Below, piece by piece: positions 31,789 through 39,873 of a stretch of DNA of 64,000 nt. Both the position numbers and the translations under genes were made by a program. The stretch's first letter is position 1; every line of letters begins with the position of its first letter. The stretch is from Methanocaldococcus indicus. GTDB lineage: Archaea > AGJL01 > Methanococci > Methanococcales > Methanocaldococcaceae. The notes under the pieces are model-generated. The model did no database searches, was not told the origin of the DNA, and was given only the letters and a program-made list of their open reading frames with translations. The stretch is taken from NCBI RefSeq assembly GCF_049554935.1, contig NZ_CP186926.1:512001-576000 (forward strand), in the 5' to 3' direction.

Positions 31789-32679
31789 TTAAATTTTTGT
31801 TATAAAGTCCCAGAAAGATTTTACTGCACTTGGGTTTTTTGTTTTTTTATTTTTAACTAAATATAAATTCCTAACAAGTTCTAAATCTTTTATTGGGACT
31901 ATTTTTACTAATCCTGCATTTTCAGCTTTTTTTGCTGGAATCTCTGATATTACACTCACTCCATAACCTTCTGAAACAGCTGTTATAACAGCTGAACTAC
32001 TTCCCAACTTCATAATAACATTTAAATCCATCTCTGAATAGCCTTTTTCATTTAAAGCTTTAATAAATATTTCTCTTGTTCCAGAACCTTCCTCTCTATC
32101 TATAAAGTCCTCTTTTAAAATATCTTCAATAGTTGCATATCCTTTTTTAGCTAATTCATGGTTAGGAGGAACTATCAACACTAACCTATCCTTCCCAATT
32201 ACTGTATATTCATAACTATCATCTAATAGATAACCAACAGCAGCTATATCAGCAAGACCTTCATTTAAAGCTTTAAAACATTTTTTAGAATCTTCAATAG
32301 TTATCTCAAATTTTACATTAGGATATTTTTCAATATACTCCTTTATTAATGATGGTAAAATATGTTCTCCTGGTGTTGTTGAAGCATAAACTCTTATAAC
32401 TCCTTCTGGATTTGAATACATTGATTTCATTAACATTTTAGCTTCATTTAACAATTCCAAAATTTTTTTACTTCTTTCATATAATATCTCTCCCTCTGGT
32501 GTAAGCTCAACTCCTTCTGGAGTTCTTAAAAATAATTGAACATCAAAATATTTCTCTAAAGCAGATATATGATTACTTACAGTCCCTTGAGTAATGTTTA
32601 GCTGTTTAGCAGCTTTTGAGAAACTTTTTGTTTCACTTGCTACGATAAATGTTTTAAAATAGCTAATCTTAGGGTCCAT
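31789..32679 (-). CDS. hrsM: LysR-family regulator, selenium-metabolism-associated (HrsM-like)
   Basis: SFSKAAKQLNITQGTVSNHISALE HTH; ASTTPGEHILP; REEGSGTR. Confidence 0.75.
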   Translation of the reverse strand: MDPKISYFKTFIVASETKSFSKAAKQLNITQGTVSNHISALEKYFDVQLFLRTPEGVELTPEGEILYERSKKILELLNEAKMLMKSMYSNPEGVIRVYASTTPGEHILPSLIKEYIEKYPNVKFEITIEDSKKCFKALNEGLADIAAVGYLLDDSYEYTVIGKDRLVLIVPPNHELAKKGYATIEDILKEDFIDREEGSGTREIFIKALNEKGYSEMDLNVIMKLGSSSAVITAVSEGYGVSVISEIPAKKAENAGLVKIVPIKDLELVRNLYLVKNKKTKNPSAVKSFWDFITKI

Positions 32680-32904: not shown

Positions 32905-34143
32905 ATGAAAGCAGATGCAATAAAAATAGCTGACAGAGTATATTGGGTTGGAGTTTTAGATTGGGATATAAGAAAGTACCATGGATATACATTAAAAGGA
33001 ACTACCTACAACGCATACTTAGTATTTGGAGATGACAAAGTTGCTATTATTGACAATACATATCCAGGAACATCTGCACAAATGTGGGGAAGAATAAAAG
33101 ATGCATTTGAAAAAGAAGGTAGAGATTTAAAAATTGATGTTATAGTACAAAACCATGTTGAAAAAGACCACTCAGGAGCTTTACCAGAGTTACACAAAAA
33201 ATTCCCAGATGCTCCAATATACTGTACAGAAGTAGCTGTTGAAGGTTTGAAAAAGCACTATCCATCATTAGCAAATGCACCATTTAAAGTAGTTAAAAGC
33301 TTAGATAGTGTAGATTTAGGAGGAGCTACATTAACATTCTTAGAAGCTCCATTATTACACTGGCCAGATTCAATGTTCACCTTCTATGCAGAAGAAGGAA
33401 TTTTATTCTCAAATGATGCATTTGGACAACACTTATGTTTCCCAGCTCACATGAGATTTGATAAAGATATTCCAGAATATGTCTTAATGGATGCTAATAA
33501 AAAGTTCTATGCAAACTTAATAACTCCATTATCCAAATTAGTATTAAAGAAATTTGAAGAAGTTACTAACTTAGGATTATTAGAAAAAATAAAAATGATA
33601 GCTCCATCACATGGACAAATCTGGACAGACCCAATGAAAGTTATTAAAGCATATCAAGACTTTGCTACTGGAAAAGCTGCTAAGGATAAAGCAGTTATCA
33701 TCTATGACACAATGCACTACTCAACACAAAAAATGGCACATGCTTATGCAGAAGGTTTAATGAGTGAAGGAATAGAAGTAGTAATGTACTTCTTACACTA
33801 TGATGAAAGAAGTGAAATAGTTAAAGATATATTAGATGCAAAAGCTGTCTTATTTGGAACACCAACAATCTATGATGAACCATATCCATCATTAGGAGAT
33901 ATTATCTACTATTTAAGAGGATTGAAATTTAACAGAACAGGATTCAAGAGATTAGCATTAGTCTTTGGTTCAATGGGAGGTAATGGAGGAGGAGTTGATA
34001 TATTAGCAGAAGAAGTTGCAAAATGTGGATTTGAAGTAGTTGATAAAAATGAGTTATACTATGTCCCAACAGAAGATGAATTAACAAACTGCTACATGCA
34101 AGGTAAAGAATTAGGTAAAAAAATTAAAGAAATGAAAATCTAA
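32905..34143 (+). CDS. fprA: Flavodiiron protein / F420H2 oxidase
   Basis: [38 protein letters not shown]-terminal flavodoxin domain. Confidence 0.93.
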
Positions 34144-34176
34144 ATTATTTTAATTTTCAAGAAAATTATTCATAAA

Positions 34177-34213
34177 TTTTTTTAACTATCTATTTTTTTA
34201 TCTATTTTTATTT
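34177..34213 (+). terminator. Oligo-T archaeal terminator candidate after fprA
   Basis: Successive T7/T7/T5 runs (TTTTTTTAACTATCTATTTTTTTATCTATTTTT). Confidence 0.45.
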
Positions 34214-34364
34214 CTAATAAAATTAAAATTCAGTATTATTATATCTTATTTTTACTGTCCATTACTTATTACAAATTATACAATACAGTATTAACACTTA
34301 TTAAGATTTATAAAGTTTAGTATTATTTATTATATCATTCTCATACTTAAACTCAATAAATAGT

Positions 34365-34372
34365 TTTATATA
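34365..34372 (+). promoter_or_regulatory. TATA box candidate for the nitrate operon
   Basis: TTTATATA preceded by purine-rich AATAAATAG. Confidence 0.5.
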
Positions 34373-34389
34373 CTATATTTATAATTATA

Positions 34390-34403
34390 GGTAATAGCTT
34401 TCC
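34390..34403. promoter_or_regulatory. NrpR-like nitrogen operator 1
   Basis: GGTA-ATAGCT-TTCC, one mismatch to GGAA-N6-TTCC, within TATAGG...CCTATA palindrome. Confidence 0.7.
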
Positions 34404-34481
34404 TATATCCTTATGTTATATGTTTTAAATTTTTACAAAATTGTAGGAAATGGGTATCCTATAACATAGGAAATAGGAAGG
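34398..34481 (+). repeat. Long inverted repeat in narK leader (arms 34398-34420 and 34460-34481)
   Basis: CTTTCCTATATCCTTATGTTATA pairs with TATAACATAGGAAATAGGAAGG with one bulge, one mismatch and one G-U. Confidence 0.75.
34446..34459. promoter_or_regulatory. NrpR-like nitrogen operator 2
   Basis: GGAA-ATGGGT-ATCC, one mismatch to GGAA-N6-TTCC, flanked TA...TA. Confidence 0.7.
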
Positions 34482-34488
34482 TGGTAAT

Positions 34489-35949
34489 ATGAATTTAAAA
34501 AATCAAAAAAAAGAAAAAGAAAAAAAAGTTAAAAAAGTAGATATAATTAAGGCTTTAAAAAGTGGAGATATAAAAACACTAATAGCTTCTTTATTATACT
34601 TTGATACAGGATTTATGGTGTGGTTGCTATTTGGACCAGCTTTGGGGTTATTCATAGCTCAAGAGCTTGGATTATCTCCAGCTGAAAAAGGGTTTATGGT
34701 TGCTGTTCCTATCTTAGCAGCTGCTTTATTTAGAATTCCATTTGGGTATATGTATCAAGCAATTGATGGAAAATATATAGCCCTAGCAGGAATTTTGTTA
34801 TCTGCTTTACCAATTTTATATGTTAATTTATTCCCAATTGACTATACCACACTACTTGTATTAGGTGCTTTTTTAGGAATTGGTGGAGCAAGTTTTGCAA
34901 TTGCTTTACCTATGGCTGGAAGTAATTATCCAAAACAGTATCAAGGTTTAGTTTTAGGACTTGCAGCTGCTGGTAATTTAGGAGCAATGATGGATGGTAT
35001 GGTTTTTCCACCATTAGCAGAGATGTATGGATGGAGAAAAGCAGCTTTAGTTGCATTATTGTTTTTAGCTATTTCATTTATTCTATGTTGGAAATGGATT
35101 AAAGACAGTTCTCCAAAAAAACCAGAATTAAAAATAAAATCAATTTTAAACTTTGTAATAACTTTTGTATCATTTATTGTTGTTACATTACTGTTGTATA
35201 GTGGTGTAATTGGTATAAGTGGAAAGTTTGGACTCTTACTCCTTCCAATAATAGTTTGGATTATTTCAATAGCACTATTGTCCTCAGATTATAGAAATGC
35301 ACTTAAAAAGAAAGACCCTTGGGTATTTATGCTATTCTATGCCCTAACATTTGGAGGATTCGTAGGGATGTCTGGTTCAGTTGCATTTATAATAAATAGT
35401 CAGTATGGTTTTGACCCTGTATTAGCAGGATTAACTATGGCATTACTTTCATTTACAGGTGCATTAATTAGACCTATTGGTGGATGGATTTCAGATATAA
35501 TAGGAGGAGTTAGAGTTTTATTAGCAGTATTTTTAACAATAGCATTTTGTGATTTAGTTTTAGGAATATTTATTCCTCCTGCAATTATTGGAATACCATT
35601 ATTATGGTTATTATTTGCAGCATTTGGTTTAGGTAATGGAGCAGTATTCCAATTAGTTCCACTAAGATGGCCAAGAGCAACAGGTATGGCAACAGGATTA
35701 ATTGGAGCTGCAGGAGGAATAGGAGGATTTTACTTATCTTCAACTATGGGATTAGCTAAAGAATTAACAGGTAGTTATGGGCCAGGATATATAATCTTTG
35801 GAATATTAGCATTATTAGCATTTGGAATACTCTATTTACTTAGAAATGAATATATGGAGTGGGGATTTGTTAAACATCATGAAGAAGAAATTTTTGAGTC
35901 TAATAAGTTAGATACAAATGTAGTTTTACAATATCAATCTAAAAGATAA
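34489..35949 (+). CDS. narK: MFS nitrate/nitrite transporter (NarK/NasA type)
   Basis: LYFDTGFMVWLLFGP, FRIPFG, GIGGASFA, FYALTFGGFVG, IRPIGGWISD, GLGNGAVFQLVP, GAAGGIGGF nitrate-signature motifs. Confidence 0.92.
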   Translation: MNLKNQKKEKEKKVKKVDIIKALKSGDIKTLIASLLYFDTGFMVWLLFGPALGLFIAQELGLSPAEKGFMVAVPILAAALFRIPFGYMYQAIDGKYIALAGILLSALPILYVNLFPIDYTTLLVLGAFLGIGGASFAIALPMAGSNYPKQYQGLVLGLAAAGNLGAMMDGMVFPPLAEMYGWRKAALVALLFLAISFILCWKWIKDSSPKKPELKIKSILNFVITFVSFIVVTLLLYSGVIGISGKFGLLLLPIIVWIISIALLSSDYRNALKKKDPWVFMLFYALTFGGFVGMSGSVAFIINSQYGFDPVLAGLTMALLSFTGALIRPIGGWISDIIGGVRVLLAVFLTIAFCDLVLGIFIPPAIIGIPLLWLLFAAFGLGNGAVFQLVPLRWPRATGMATGLIGAAGGIGGFYLSSTMGLAKELTGSYGPGYIIFGILALLAFGILYLLRNEYMEWGFVKHHEEEIFESNKLDTNVVLQYQSKR

Positions 35950-36037: not shown

Positions 36038-38041
36038 ATGATAAAAACACAATGTCCTTACTGTGGATGTGGCTGTGGATTAATTATTGAGAAAAAAAAT
36101 GGAGAAATAAAAATTAAAGGAAATAGAGAACATCCTGCAAGTAAAGGTAGTATATGTATAAAAGCTGTTAAATTACCTAAAACCTTAGATAAGAATAGAT
36201 TAGATAAGGTATTATATAGAGAGTCAAAAAATGAAGATTTTAGAGAAATTAGTTGGGATTCAGCTTATGAAATATTAAAAGAAAAACTAACTAATCTATC
36301 TCCTAATGAAATCTATTTTTATATCTCTGGCCAGTTATTGACAGAAGAAATGTATGTTATAAACAAGTTTGTAAAAGGATTCTTAAAAACTAACAATATT
36401 GATTCTAATTCAAGATTGTGTGTTGCAAGTGCAGTAACAGCATACAAAATGGCTTTTGGTTCTGATGGACTACCAGGATGTAATGATGACATAGATGATG
36501 CAGATTGTTTTATCTTTGTTGGTTCTAATGCTGCTATTGCTCATCCAGGAATTTTTAGAAGAATTATAAAAAAGAAAGATAAAGAAATTGTTGTTATTGA
36601 TTTTAGATATACTGAAACGGCCAAATATGCTGACAAATGGATTCCAATAAAAGCAGGAACAGATGTAGCTCTTTTTAATTCAATACTCTATATTCTATAT
36701 AAAGAGAACAAAATATACTGGAATTTTATAAAAAAATATACTGATGGATTTGACAAAGTTTTGGAAGTCATAAAAAATTATCCACCTGAAAAAGTTGCCA
36801 AGTTGTGTGAAATTTCTGAGGAAGACATATACTATTTAGCTAATCTTTATGCAAATAAAAAGAAAGTTCTTACTTTTTGGAGTATGGGTATTAATCAATC
36901 TACAAATGGAACAATGAAAGCTCTTTCAATAATCAATGTGCATCTTGCAACAGGAAGATTAAATGATAGAGGTTGTCCTTTTTCTCTAACTGGACAATCT
37001 AATGCAATGGGAGGTAGGGAAGTAGGATATCTATCTAATGGACTACCAGGTTTTAGAGATGTTAGGAACAAAGAGGATAGAGAATTTGTAGAAAAATTTT
37101 GGGGTATTGAAGCTGGCTCAATCAAAGATAAACCTGGATTATCAATAACAGAAGCAGTAGATAAAATTTTAGATGGAGAAATAAAATTTATTTGGATTGT
37201 TTGCACAAATCCAGCAGTTTCTATGGCTAATTTAAATAAATTTATAAAGGCCTTAAAAAAAGAGGATGTATTTGTTGTAGTTCAGGATGCATACTTTACA
37301 GATACTGTTAAGTTGGCCAATCTTGCTCTTCCAGCTGCTCAATGGGGAGAAAAAGATGGTGTTATGACAGGAGGAGATAGAGTAGTTACATACTGCCAAA
37401 AATTTAGAGAAACAAAATATAAGCCTGATTGGAAAATTTTTGCTGAATTAGCTAAAAAAATGGGATTTGAAAAATACTTTAACTATAAATCTGCAAGAGA
37501 CATTTTTGAAGAATTCAAAAAACTTACAAAAGGTAGAATGTGTGACATATCTAATTTTAGTTATGAAGATTTACCTAAAAGATGGGGAAATAAACACCTA
37601 TATAAAGATTTAAAGTTTAAAACAGAAAATAAAAAAGCCAAATTTATACCAACTGAATTTAAAGAGCCAGAAGACTGGAATAAAGAAGGATTTATAATCT
37701 CAACAGGTAGGTTAAAAAAGCATTGGCACACTATGACAAGGACTATCCATATTAAAGAATTTTTAGATGAAATAGAGCCAATAGTTGAAATAAATAAAAA
37801 AGATGCCAAAGAATTAGGACTAAATGAAGGAGATATAGTTAAATTGGTGTCTGAAAGAGGAGAAATAATAAGAAAAGTGAAATTTGCAAATATAAAACCG
37901 AAACATTTATTTACCCCATTTGGATATAATAGGAACGTAACAAAGTATCAAACAAACCAGATAACAACTGATAAGTCAGACCCATATTCAAAAGAACCAG
38001 AGTTGAAATTTAGTAAGGTGAAAATATGGAATGGAAATTAA
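36038..38041 (+). CDS. narB: Assimilatory nitrate reductase, NarB type (Mo/W-bis-PGD, one 4Fe-4S)
   Basis: CPYCGCGC...C cluster, SGQLLTEE, DSNSRLC metal ligand, WSMGINQS, SLTGQSNAMGGREVG, TGR...HWHTMTRT; no signal peptide. Confidence 0.9.
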   Translation: MIKTQCPYCGCGCGLIIEKKNGEIKIKGNREHPASKGSICIKAVKLPKTLDKNRLDKVLYRESKNEDFREISWDSAYEILKEKLTNLSPNEIYFYISGQLLTEEMYVINKFVKGFLKTNNIDSNSRLCVASAVTAYKMAFGSDGLPGCNDDIDDADCFIFVGSNAAIAHPGIFRRIIKKKDKEIVVIDFRYTETAKYADKWIPIKAGTDVALFNSILYILYKENKIYWNFIKKYTDGFDKVLEVIKNYPPEKVAKLCEISEEDIYYLANLYANKKKVLTFWSMGINQSTNGTMKALSIINVHLATGRLNDRGCPFSLTGQSNAMGGREVGYLSNGLPGFRDVRNKEDREFVEKFWGIEAGSIKDKPGLSITEAVDKILDGEIKFIWIVCTNPAVSMANLNKFIKALKKEDVFVVVQDAYFTDTVKLANLALPAAQWGEKDGVMTGGDRVVTYCQKFRETKYKPDWKIFAELAKKMGFEKYFNYKSARDIFEEFKKLTKGRMCDISNFSYEDLPKRWGNKHLYKDLKFKTENKKAKFIPTEFKEPEDWNKEGFIISTGRLKKHWHTMTRTIHIKEFLDEIEPIVEINKKDAKELGLNEGDIVKLVSERGEIIRKVKFANIKPKHLFTPFGYNRNVTKYQTNQITTDKSDPYSKEPELKFSKVKIWNGN

Positions 38042-39873
38042 ATGAAATTGTAAATAATGGATTCTGTGCAGCTTGTTCAATATGTTCTGTTGTATGTCCT
38101 AATAATTTAATAGATTTTGATAACAAACCATTTTTAAAAGATGAATGTTTAAGAAAAGGGCATGGAATGTGTTATGAAGTTTGTCCAAGAGTCTCATCTG
38201 GAAAGTATCAAATTAAAATTAGAGAAGGATTTAAAGAGGAGTATTATTATGGAAAAGGAGATATAGAAGGACAAGATGGGGGTGTTGTAACTACTTTTTT
38301 AAAATATTTAATTGAAAATAAAAAGATTGATGGAGCTATTATTGTAGCAAGAGATGAGTATTGGAAACCTATTTCAATGATAGTTCAGACAGCTGATGAC
38401 ATAATAAAAGGAGCAAAATCAAAATACACAATATCAACTATGGAAGCTTTAAGAAAAGCAGGGGAGTTAGGTTTAAAAAAGGTTGCAGTTGTTGGATTAC
38501 CTTGCCAAGTTAATGCATTAAGAAAAATTAAATATTTCCCATATCTCTCCAAGCATGATTTTGAATTGGGAAGAGATGGTAAGCCCACAAAATTACCAAA
38601 AATTGAGTATTTAATTGGATTATTCTGTATGGAGAAGTTTGAATACAACAACTTTAAAGAAGTTTTAGAAAAACATAATATAAATATAAAAGATGTTAAG
38701 AAGTTTGACATTAAAAAAGGAAAGTTGTTAGTCTATTTAGATAATGAAGTTAAAGAGATTAAATTAAGTGAATTTAAAGTATTAGATGGATGTAAAGTTT
38801 GTAGAGACTTTACAGCTGAGTTGGCAGATATTTCAGTAGGTTCTGTTGGTTCTCCTGATGGATATTCAACTATCATTATAAGAACTGAGAAAGGAGAAGA
38901 AATTAAAAAGGCTATTGAATTAAAAGAAGGAGTTGATATTGAAAAAATAGAAAAATTAAAAGAGAAAAAACTAAAAAGATTTAAAGAAGAAATAAATAGA
39001 AGAAAAGAAAATAATGAATTCATCTCATACTATTGGGCTACTGATTATGGAGGAGTTAAAAAAAGAGGAGATGGAAAATTCTTTATAAGAGTTAGAGCTA
39101 AGCCAGCAGGATTTTATACAATTGATGAAATAGAAGGAATTTTAAAAGTAGCCAAAAAATACAATGCTGAAATAAAAACAACTGATAGAGGTGGATTTGA
39201 GCTTCATAAAGTAGATGGTTATTATATTGATGATATTATAAAAGAATTAAAAGAACTAAACATAACAACTGGCTCTGAAGGTCCATTGGTTAGAGCTGTC
39301 TTAGCATGTCCAGGATATTTAAATTGTGGAAATGGTTTAATTGAAACTAAAAAAATAGCTGAAATTATAGAAGAAAAATTTAAAGAGTATCCATCTGAAA
39401 ATAAATTTAAAATTTCTATAAGTGGATGCCCAAGTATGTGTGTTAGAGCAAATATCCATGATATTGGAATTGTAGGGGTAAAAATTCCAAAAGTAAATGA
39501 TAAATGTGTTGGATGTGGCAGATGTTATGAAACTTGCCCTGTAGAGGCAATTTATATAAGAGGAGAAACTTCATACACTAACTATAACATCTGTGTTGGA
39601 TGTGGAAAATGTATTAAAAACTGTCCAAATGAAGGTAGAGAGGCAAAATTTGAAGGATTTAGAATATATATTGGTGGAAAATCCGGAAGAACAGTTTATG
39701 AAGGATTCAGTTATTTAATTGAGAGAGATGTAGATAAAGTTTTAAAAATTATTGAAAATACACTAAAAACATATAAGAAATATACAGATAAAGTCCAAAG
39801 AGAAAGATTAGCTCATGTCATTAGAAAAGTAGGAGTAGAAAACTTCTTAAAAGAAGTTTTTGATAATATTTAA
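38026..39873 (+). CDS. fsr: F420-dependent sulfite reductase (Fsr) homolog, probable F420-dependent nitrite reductase
   Basis: N-terminal FrhB-like half (EWKLNEIV, GQDGGVVT, VGLPCQ) fused to siroheme half (ACPG..NC, SGCPSMC) with ferredoxin insert. Confidence 0.88.
   Translation: MEWKLNEIVNNGFCAACSICSVVCPNNLIDFDNKPFLKDECLRKGHGMCYEVCPRVSSGKYQIKIREGFKEEYYYGKGDIEGQDGGVVTTFLKYLIENKKIDGAIIVARDEYWKPISMIVQTADDIIKGAKSKYTISTMEALRKAGELGLKKVAVVGLPCQVNALRKIKYFPYLSKHDFELGRDGKPTKLPKIEYLIGLFCMEKFEYNNFKEVLEKHNINIKDVKKFDIKKGKLLVYLDNEVKEIKLSEFKVLDGCKVCRDFTAELADISVGSVGSPDGYSTIIIRTEKGEEIKKAIELKEGVDIEKIEKLKEKKLKRFKEEINRRKENNEFISYYWATDYGGVKKRGDGKFFIRVRAKPAGFYTIDEIEGILKVAKKYNAEIKTTDRGGFELHKVDGYYIDDIIKELKELNITTGSEGPLVRAVLACPGYLNCGNGLIETKKIAEIIEEKFKEYPSENKFKISISGCPSMCVRANIHDIGIVGVKIPKVNDKCVGCGRCYETCPVEAIYIRGETSYTNYNICVGCGKCIKNCPNEGREAKFEGFRIYIGGKSGRTVYEGFSYLIERDVDKVLKIIENTLKTYKKYTDKVQRERLAHVIRKVGVENFLKEVFDNI

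Follow-up and report, generated by a model that had tools for sequence, protein, structure and literature searches.

Does the long hairpin that can be drawn across the leader of an archaeal narK gene act in the RNA, or is it a by-product of the DNA sites that control the promoter? The question is raised by an imperfect inverted repeat of about 22 bp, which extends from near the predicted 5′ end of the narK transcript to its Shine-Dalgarno (SD) sequence. The repeat lies in the window examined here, a 64,000-nucleotide stretch of DNA (G000:C1:512001-576000) from a 1.44-Mb genome of the order Methanococcales with a G+C content of 28%. A first-pass annotation of the window had interpreted the hairpin as a device that sequesters the ribosome-binding site of narK, forming a dedicated post-transcriptional switch superimposed on repression by NrpR. 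The reading favored here, with moderate confidence, is that the region is an NrpR-controlled narK promoter carrying three operator-like sites, and that the inverted modules of these sites create the hairpin.

The narK operon and its host

The organism from which the window derives is probably a hyperthermophile, because the G+C content of its 16S rRNA (64.0%) matches that of two genomes of the same genus, G001 and G013 (64.5% and 64.8%) and differs from that of two Methanococcales genomes of a sister family (58.8% and 57.3%). The genes flanking the leader are as follows.

31789-32679, minus strand: LysR-type regulator gene, 1.7 kb upstream of narK (profile match)
32905-34143: flavodiiron-type gene, upstream of narK (profile match)
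34489..35949, plus strand: narK-family nitrate/nitrite MFS transporter gene (Pfam MFS_1)
36038..38041, plus strand: molybdopterin oxidoreductase gene, assimilatory nitrate-reductase-like (profile matches)
38026..39873, plus strand: gene for a fusion of FrhB-like and sulfite/nitrite-reductase parts (Fsr-like, F420-dependent; profile matches)

The top NCBIfam match of the narK product is the NarK family model TIGR00886, with 254.5 bits against a cut-off of 311.7. The product of the second gene matches the NasC and NasA models with E values of 1e-131 and 1e-113, both under the respective cut-offs, and is scored more highly by an Fdh-alpha model, likewise under its own cut-off.

A probable NrpR-type promoter precedes narK

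The sequence between the flavodiiron-type gene and narK contains candidate elements of a promoter under NrpR control.

34365..34372, plus strand: TATA box of promoter P1 (TATA1), TTTATATA, an exact match with an A-rich, BRE-like stretch upstream
34378..34385, plus strand: alternative TATA-like sequence, TTTATAAT
34390..34403, unstranded: operator O1, GGTAATAGCTTTCC, with 7/8 half-site bases, overlapping the predicted P1 start site
34446..34459, unstranded: operator O2, GGAAATGGGTATCC, with 7/8 half-site bases
34469..34482, unstranded: half-site O3, GGAAATAGGAAGGT, an operator left half-site plus spacer in which the SD sequence replaces the right half

The sequence context of the P1 TATA box, TTTTATA(T/C)(T/A)..TAT(A)TT, is also present ahead of narK in three related genomes (leaders L002, L003 and L004). 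In the survey of Methanocaldococcus jannaschii transcripts, start sites are reported 23 ± 2 nt past the TATA box's 3′ edge for 126 of 134 promoters, A or G being favored (PMC2699501). By this rule, transcription from P1 would begin at about 34393-34398, inside O1, and the P1 transcript would therefore hold the whole helix. The alternative TATA-like sequence pointed out in the first-pass annotation is indeed present, and a start directed by it, predicted near 34406-34411, would cost the hairpin roughly half of its 5′ arm, but it has no conserved counterpart at the corresponding place in L002-L004.

The operator-like sites resemble others of the same regulon. O1 is identical to a perfect operator at G000:C1:743203 except for one base, and its GGTA variant recurs in the same genome in the main operator of amtB and the distal site of modA. 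At the distal nifH site of G001 (L026), the ATCC variant of O2 is found again, and O2 aligns with the perfect operators GGAAATAGGCTTCC of L002 and L003 and GGAAGTAGGTTTCC of the metagenomic leader L024. Together with their flanks, O1 and O2 form direct repeats (34383-34407 and 34439-34463) that a repeat finder reports as 80% identical at a distance of 56 nt. O3 is situated 23 nt after O2, an interval at which the repeat finder also detects a repetition of TAGGAAATGGG as TAGGAAATAGG, and the same tandem spacing is found in the narK promoters of L003 and L024. In the P-II promoter, it separates the middle site from the proximal one.

The wider genome is consistent with an active NrpR system. A single 547-aa open frame matches PF01995 twice, corresponding to the two NRD domains of NrpR. 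The operator consensus given for Methanococcus maripaludis, GGAAN6TTCC (PMC2723118), occurs 56 times in the chromosome, compared with 9.3 occurrences expected from base composition, and 14 of the 56 are intergenic in a chromosome whose intergenic portion is 9.3% by a crude ORF map. Ten of these 14, at eight loci, adjoin glnA, nifH, modA, amtB/draG-like, P-II, two ABC-transporter genes and one unknown gene. One of the other four intergenic matches falls in a CRISPR array.

Five promoters of this regulon (among them those of nifH, modA, amtB and P-II) share a layout in which a distal operator-like site is followed after 10-19 nt by a TATA box and then by the main operator, the sites being 53-66 bp apart. 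The P-II promoter resembles that of narK in layout: its three sites are spaced by 54 and 23 bp, compared with 56 and 23 bp at narK, and over 49 nt its TATA-operator module shares 81.6% identity with the TATA1-O1 module (34365-34411). An origin of the region from a repeat or mobile element was rejected: a blastn comparison of 34360-34495 with the genome revealed no second copy, the matches consisting of A+T-rich, low-scoring segments and the P-II promoter.

Promoters of related narK genes tell the same story. A search of 41 relatives and then of 40 genomes of the order recovered a full narK gene only in G013, G001 and G032, and a 105-aa remnant in G010; one metagenome scan added two contigs, L024, with a leader that shares 92% identity with the one in G001, and L025, which matches G032 exactly over this region and so duplicates L004. 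A TATA box and an operator are present at all narK promoters examined, the operator being perfect in L004 and L025 and having one mismatch in L002, L003 and L024. It begins 29-31 nt past the first T of the TATA box in the orthologues (25 nt in the window), so the start site predicted for them is the first G of the operator. Further perfect operators reside 49-78 nt before the ATG in L002, L003 and L024.

Because operators accompany the narK promoter in every narK-bearing Methanococcales genome examined, the narK operon probably belongs to the NrpR regulon. The claim of NrpR repression in the first-pass annotation is well supported in silico, as judged from the operators, the regulon and the orthologous promoters.

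The leader contains a long, non-random inverted repeat

The elements of the hairpin and its surroundings are the following.

34398..34420, plus strand: 5′ arm of the hairpin, comprising the right half of O1 (TTCC, 34400-34403), a second TCC (34408-34410) and the non-operator core TATGTTATA (34412-34420)
34430..34449, plus strand: small inner hairpin (RNAfold), 34430-34437 with 34442-34449, 8 bp including two U.G pairs, its 3′ side formed by the GGAA of O2
34460..34481, plus strand: 3′ arm of the hairpin, comprising the core TATAACATA (34460-34468) followed by GGAAATAGGAAGG
34479..34485, plus strand: SD sequence AGGUGGU, with a predicted duplex with the 3′ end of the 16S rRNA of the same genome
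34413..34469, plus strand: 18-codon upstream ORF (MLYVLNFYKIVGNGYPIT), spanning the 5′ core to the 3′ core, probably untranslated

The pairing between the two arms is as originally drawn, with one bulge, one A-A mismatch and one G-U pair. The outer part consists of C34398-G34481, the wobble pair U34399.G34480 and the pairing of 34400-34406 with 34473-34479; further in are the mismatch of A34407 with A34472, the pairing of 34408-34410 with 34469-34471 and the bulged T34411, followed by the perfect 9-bp core in which TATGTTATA pairs with TATAACATA. When 34390-34495 is folded with RNAfold, this helix is both the minimum free energy (MFE) and the centroid structure, extended by a G34397.U34482 pair. 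A repeat finder independently reports 34400-34411 and 34468-34479 as an inverted repeat with 92% complementarity. The small hairpin in the loop, likewise proposed at the outset with closure by G-U pairs, is also predicted by RNAfold, with only 5 bp left at 70 °C and above.

The leader has an MFE of −28.7 kcal/mol at 37 °C, compared with −17.2 ± 2.74 kcal/mol for 200 dinucleotide shuffles (z = −4.20), none of which is as stable. When the −100..+6 regions of 1387 crude ORF calls on the chromosome are folded, that of narK ranks 18th by MFE (genome mean −12.2, sd 5.4). On the strength of the shuffles and this rank, the inverted repeat is a real feature and not a product of chance. The 15 most stable regions have G+C contents of 52-64%, and several are visibly tRNA-like or lie inside the two rRNA operons; the narK region has a G+C content of 27%.

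Attenuation by way of the upstream ORF was considered and set aside: no SD sequence precedes the ORF, and there is no counterpart in L002 or L004. An open frame of this length has a chance of about 0.15 at the local A+T content, as estimated from base composition.

Operator modules make up most of the hairpin

Much of the repeat can be traced to the DNA sites described above. The TTCC of O1 pairs with a GGAA at 34476-34479, and the second TCC pairs with the GGA of O3, such that the outer 13 bp of the arms consist of oppositely oriented half-site modules of the operator. Operator-like modules are present in both orientations, as TTCCTATATCC on the left and GGAAATAGGAA on the right, and therefore the DNA carries a long inverted repeat and any P1 transcript can fold. 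The 9-bp core alone falls outside this consensus, bearing out the earlier remark that it is not an operator half-site.

The operators are nonetheless not the entire explanation. When O1, O2, O3 and the SD sequence are held fixed and the other leader bases are shuffled, the mean MFE is −16.8 kcal/mol (sd 2.6) and none of 1000 sequences reaches −28.7 kcal/mol; operators alone therefore do not account for the helix. The outer stem by itself is predicted to contribute −16.3 kcal/mol and the core −6.4 kcal/mol, and the core together with the operator flanks contributes real complementarity beyond the operators. A perfect adjacent 9-mer would arise by chance with an estimated probability of about 1e-4. 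Conceivably, a local inverted duplication made both the hairpin and its core.

Comparable folds are predicted upstream of other genes with multiple operators, namely the draG-like gene (−26.5 kcal/mol), amtB (−25.7), P-II (−23.8) and modA (−23.2). In the P-II case, the helix is predicted between the distal operator and the proximal one, spanning the TATA box, and therefore cannot be entirely RNA. The narK leader is thus the extreme member of a class in which DNA palindromes account for all the others.

Related narK leaders lack the hairpin

The absence of the pairing from orthologous leaders had been named beforehand as evidence that would speak against a switch. No long helix closing on the SD sequence exists in the five related narK leaders, three from genomes and two from metagenomes (one of the latter duplicating L004). 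Measured from the conserved promoter, the narK leaders of the window and its orthologues would be about 94, 151, 233 and 95 nt long, and they cannot be aligned outside the operators. Across five leaders, RNAalifold retains only the 7-bp operator palindrome, with −1.09 kcal/mol and no compensatory pairs. The mean unpaired probability of the SD sequence at 37 °C is 0.29-0.45 in the orthologues, compared with 0.15 in the window, and the MFEs of the orthologues vanish at 80 °C. Opening of the −13..+13 region at that temperature is predicted to cost 1.31-1.91 kcal/mol in the four other leaders, as opposed to 4.27 kcal/mol for narK of the window.

Because it is built largely of NrpR sites and is absent from relatives, the hairpin looks like a side effect of a repressor-controlled promoter. 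According to this reading, 34365-34485 would be the control region of the narK/nitrate-reductase/Fsr-like operon, governed at the DNA level by NrpR. When nitrogen is sufficient, NrpR bound to O1, aided by O2 and O3, would block transcription; under nitrogen limitation, rising 2-oxoglutarate would free NrpR, by analogy with the M. maripaludis system. The hairpin would be a lineage-specific by-product of the operator array that may constitutively dampen narK translation, and it would not be operated by a ligand, an sRNA or temperature. The start site within O1, the binding of NrpR to the array and the lack of an RNA function are what we infer from these comparisons.

The dedicated post-transcriptional switch of the first-pass annotation accordingly finds no support: the pairing is unconserved, the arms are built from operators, similar folds are predicted at other NrpR promoters, no Rfam family matches and the helix is AU-rich.

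Possible roles for the hairpin in the transcript

The more serious competitor of the by-product reading, possible yet distinctly less probable, is that in the P1 transcript the hairpin functions as a lineage-specific RNA element. It might serve as a constitutive or temperature-graded brake on translation, in which partial cover of the SD sequence and start region would allow little NarK to be made from leaky transcripts or below the optimal temperature, or as a 5′ stabilizer, since a 5′-terminal stem might shield the mRNA from 5′-3′ exonuclease. The stability statistics given above speak for such an element, including the failure of operator-preserving shuffles to reach the stability of the hairpin, as does its suggestive geometry, with a helix that begins 1-5 nt from the predicted 5′ end of the P1 transcript and ends in the SD sequence. 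If it is functional, the hairpin would represent a rare instance of structure-based translational control in a hyperthermophilic archaeon.

In the first-pass annotation, the 3′ arm runs into the AGGTG motif (34479-34483) ahead of the ATG at 34489 and would sequester the ribosome-binding site. The helix does run into this motif, but it pairs only 34479-34481 (A, G and G) and, through the terminal G.U pair, U34482, or 3-4 of the seven SD bases, at an end closed by G.U pairs. Moreover, the predicted stability of the leader declines with heating, being −28.7, −13.9, −4.1 and −1.9 kcal/mol at 37, 60, 80 and 85 °C, respectively, such that this AU-rich helix is marginal at 80-85 °C. Sequestration of the ribosome-binding site would thus be partial.

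What remains of the occlusion is appreciable by the standards of the genome. At 80 °C, opening of the −13..+13 region of narK, at the 4.27 kcal/mol given above, exceeds the mean for its own genome (2.08, sd 0.77; z about +2.8), and the narK start region is the 20th costliest to open among the 1387; the draG-like gene and amtB, ranked 16th and 24th, also fall within the 24 most occluded start regions. Freeing the SD sequence in the predicted P1 transcript would cost 6.0, 3.2, 1.9 and 1.5 kcal/mol at 37, 65, 80 and 85 °C, respectively, a cost that climbs as the temperature falls. These opening costs at 80 °C make a modest, constitutive damping of narK translation plausible, although nearest-neighbor parameters, when carried over to 80 °C and the ionic milieu of a hyperthermophile cell, are uncertain.

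Several observations weigh against a functional RNA element. The hairpin occurs in none of the five related leaders, and its arms overlap DNA operators that already account for most of the complementarity. A cmscan search of 33900-34800 against Rfam, with E values up to 10, returned four sub-threshold matches, the best being ES036 with 25.6 bits against a gathering score of 37.6. The M. jannaschii survey also argues that such structures are rare, in that it reports a stable fold at 85 °C as predicted for only one of 134 mapped 5′ UTRs, and it describes the stable RNAs of such genomes as standing out by G+C content (PMC2699501).

A related, rather less probable proposal is that NrpR operator arrays act twice, first as repressor sites in DNA and then as transcribed hairpins that occlude the translation start. 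Transcripts escaping repression would then be poorly translated, and narK would be the extreme case, extended by the 9-bp core. Such a combined DNA/RNA element, which could grade NarK synthesis with temperature, would be without a described archaeal counterpart.

A possible internal promoter or second regulator

It is improbable that the main promoter instead resides within the hairpin, at the following element.

34416..34423, plus strand: candidate second TATA box TTATATGT of a hypothetical promoter P2, 12 nt past O1 and 30 nt short of O2, with 6/8 bases matching TTTATATA

From P2, mRNA would start near 34445-34448, without the 5′ arm, and no hairpin would form. This arrangement, with TTATATGT between O1 and O2, would reproduce the order of distal operator, TATA box and main operator found at the five regulon promoters, and it would leave the SD sequence free, as the predicted cost of opening it at 80 °C is 0.4 kcal/mol in a transcript that begins at O2. 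In a count of the 91 exact TTTATATA boxes in the genome, the commonest distance to the start codon is 50-69 nt (30/91), which the resulting 43-nt leader would match; TTATATGT lies 73 nt and TATA1 124 nt from the ATG. However, TTATATGT has only six of the eight consensus bases, whereas TATA1 is exact, conserved in the orthologues and P-II-like. In addition, P1 and P2 could coexist.

The least credible proposal is that the 22-bp inverted repeat, and especially TATGTTATA...TATAACATA, is the DNA site of a second, nitrate/nitrite-specific transcription factor working alongside NrpR. In its favor, the core is not random and falls outside the operator consensus, and a pathway-specific signal would make sense because NrpR responds only to general nitrogen status; L004 has TGTTACA at −40 with the complementary TGTAACA at −6, and 1.7 kb upstream of narK in the window is a gene for a LysR-type regulator. 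Against it, the motif is missing from L002, L003 and L024; the intergenic DNA, 131.5 kb in all, contains the half-motifs 42 and 41 times, so the shared pair of 7-mers is weak evidence; the LysR gene is not adjacent, nor is it syntenic in L002-L004; and a dimer site would not usually have its arms 39 bp apart.

Comparison with known regulatory systems

If the hairpin is a by-product of the operator array, as favored here, it illustrates that palindromic operator arrays in A+T-rich genomes can give rise to impressive but probably incidental leader hairpins, which is a reason for caution in scans for structured RNAs.

Leader hairpins that sequester the SD sequence are known in bacteria, including the ROSE and fourU RNA thermometers. 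The narK hairpin resembles these in its AU-rich helix, which includes a mismatch, a bulge and G.U pairs, in its partial cover of the SD sequence and in its gradual predicted melting. It differs from them in lacking an Rfam match and conservation, in covering just 3-4 SD bases and in being nearly open, by prediction, at the likely growth temperature.

The first-pass annotation had also invoked bacterial NasR and NasS-NasT antitermination. With such leaders, including NasR-nasF, narK shares a structured leader before the first nitrate-assimilation gene. This analogy finds no support, in that no terminator-like T-run follows the stem after 34482. The control proposed here is promoter repression, not antitermination. 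The ANTAR domain (PF03861) has no match in the window genome, nor in any of 14 control genomes, in a search without a working control. In archaea, translation can be controlled through a structured 5′ leader by L7Ae, which recognizes k-turns (PMC6298567). That system requires a k-turn bound by L7Ae, and the narK helix is a nearly continuous duplex. A keyword search of open-access text for an archaeal nitrate leader that sequesters its SD sequence found nothing of the kind.

The closest parallel is the NrpR regulon of M. maripaludis, where the operators of nif, glnA and glnK-amtB have the same palindrome, are positioned after the TATA box at or after the start site and are followed by more operators in the leader; glnA, nif, mod, amtB and P-II are regulon members in both. 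A TATA box with two leader operators is the classical NrpR arrangement at nif, and a Methanococcus-like nif promoter (L028) has a TATA box and operators O1 and O2 33 bp apart. Unlike the M. maripaludis cases, the target in the window is a nitrate-assimilation operon, O1 and O2 each deviate from the consensus by one base, O3 combines a half-site with the SD sequence and the modules form a 22-bp inverted repeat that spans the whole leader.

Growth on nitrate is mentioned for Methanocaldococcus infernus (PMC9765008). The same paper reports that narK, narB and a co-located fsr isoform of M. thermolithotrophicus are "unexpectedly" highly expressed during diazotrophy, a situation that its authors describe as unique so far; in its text, the word operator appears once, in the reference list, and no NrpR operator at narK is stated there (PMC9765008). 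By analogy, such induction of narK, narB and fsr is what NrpR control would predict, and the NrpR operators on narK promoters thus offer a simple explanation for the published observation.

Structured elements in the narK leaders of relatives

In the narK leaders of a related genome (locus L003) and a metagenome contig (L024), which are 92% identical overall, a short hairpin lies between the two tandem operators (NrpR sites, GGAA-N6-TTCC), and an upstream reading frame begins about 20 nt past the predicted start site:

L003:1410-1455 and L024:230-275, 9-bp hairpin TCCTAYATC-TTAG-GATRTAGGA
L003 about -213 and L024 about -212 from the narK ATG, 43-codon upstream ORF

Within the hairpin, the two leaders are distinguished by a pair of substitutions that compensate each other, T>C and A>G; in the spacer of the tandem's upstream operator, an A>G change occurs in parallel, turning GGAAATAGG into GGAAGTAGG. 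Selection on a palindrome or on an RNA stem could account for these changes; alternatively, they could have arisen by templated correction or conversion among repeats. The frame of the upstream ORF is open in both leaders despite many amino-acid differences. Because no Shine-Dalgarno sequence precedes it, the ORF is probably not coding.

In a further genome, G032, a motif that resembles the core of the hairpin in the window's narK leader occupies a different position, where it would form a local stem overlapping the narK Shine-Dalgarno sequence and AUG:

L004:1455-1500 (G032), local stem GTGTTACA ... TGTAACAT

This stem is predicted at 37 °C only, with the start region open at 65 °C.

The gene itself is being lost in one lineage, as seen in G010, where about 105 codons are still open:

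L005:1400-1800 (G010), narK remnant

The remnant has 82% identity to residues 14-103, it is preceded by a decayed operator-like sequence, GGAAATAGGTTTTC, and its upstream gene is the same as in G013, a relative with a full narK.

Loop and core of the narK leader hairpin

The loop of the window's hairpin contains two oligo-T runs:

Window 34423-34434, T4 and T5 runs (TGTTTTAAATTTTTAC)

In archaea, tracts of T residues can signal termination, and premature termination in the leader is conceivable; runs of this type are common in such A+T-rich DNA. A weak Rfam match to the ES036 (CssrF) sRNA at 34427-34460, spanning the small hairpin within the loop and the operator-like site O2, scores 25.6 bits, below the gathering score of 37.6 (E 0.014 for a 901-nt search), and is regarded as chance.

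Both 10-mers of the hairpin core, TTATGTTATA ... TATAACATAG, recur on the same chromosome, outside the window, in the first spacer of a CRISPR array:

G000:C1:441185-442290, CRISPR array of 16 repeats, ending ...CCGTCCCGGTATGGAAAT

They are 13 nt apart in the spacer versus 39 in the hairpin, and the chance of finding both there is roughly estimated at 0.003-0.05. One of the "perfect operator" matches, at 441663, consists of the boundary between a repeat and a spacer in this array.

Operator layout in the regulon promoters

Two overlapping perfect operators (GGAAGGAAATTTCCTTCC) lie between the divergent DraG-like gene and amtB, whose start regions are both among the 24 of 1387 costliest to open at 80 °C:

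G000:C1:479405-481550, divergent DraG-like / amtB intergenic region

Five regulon promoters share a common arrangement:

G000:C1:469114-469230, nifH promoter
G000:C1:473063-473194, modA promoter
G000:C1:480298-480384, amtB/draG-like promoter
G000:C1:819423-819525, BCAA-type binding-protein gene promoter
G000:C1:973666-973765, P-II promoter

Operators that bracket the TATA box are not known to have been described in M. maripaludis, as judged from sources other than the primary NrpR papers. In all five promoters here, an operator-like site resides 10-19 nt before the TATA box and the main operator follows it, at a distance of 53-66 bp from the first site, and thus the repressor sites bracket the TATA box.
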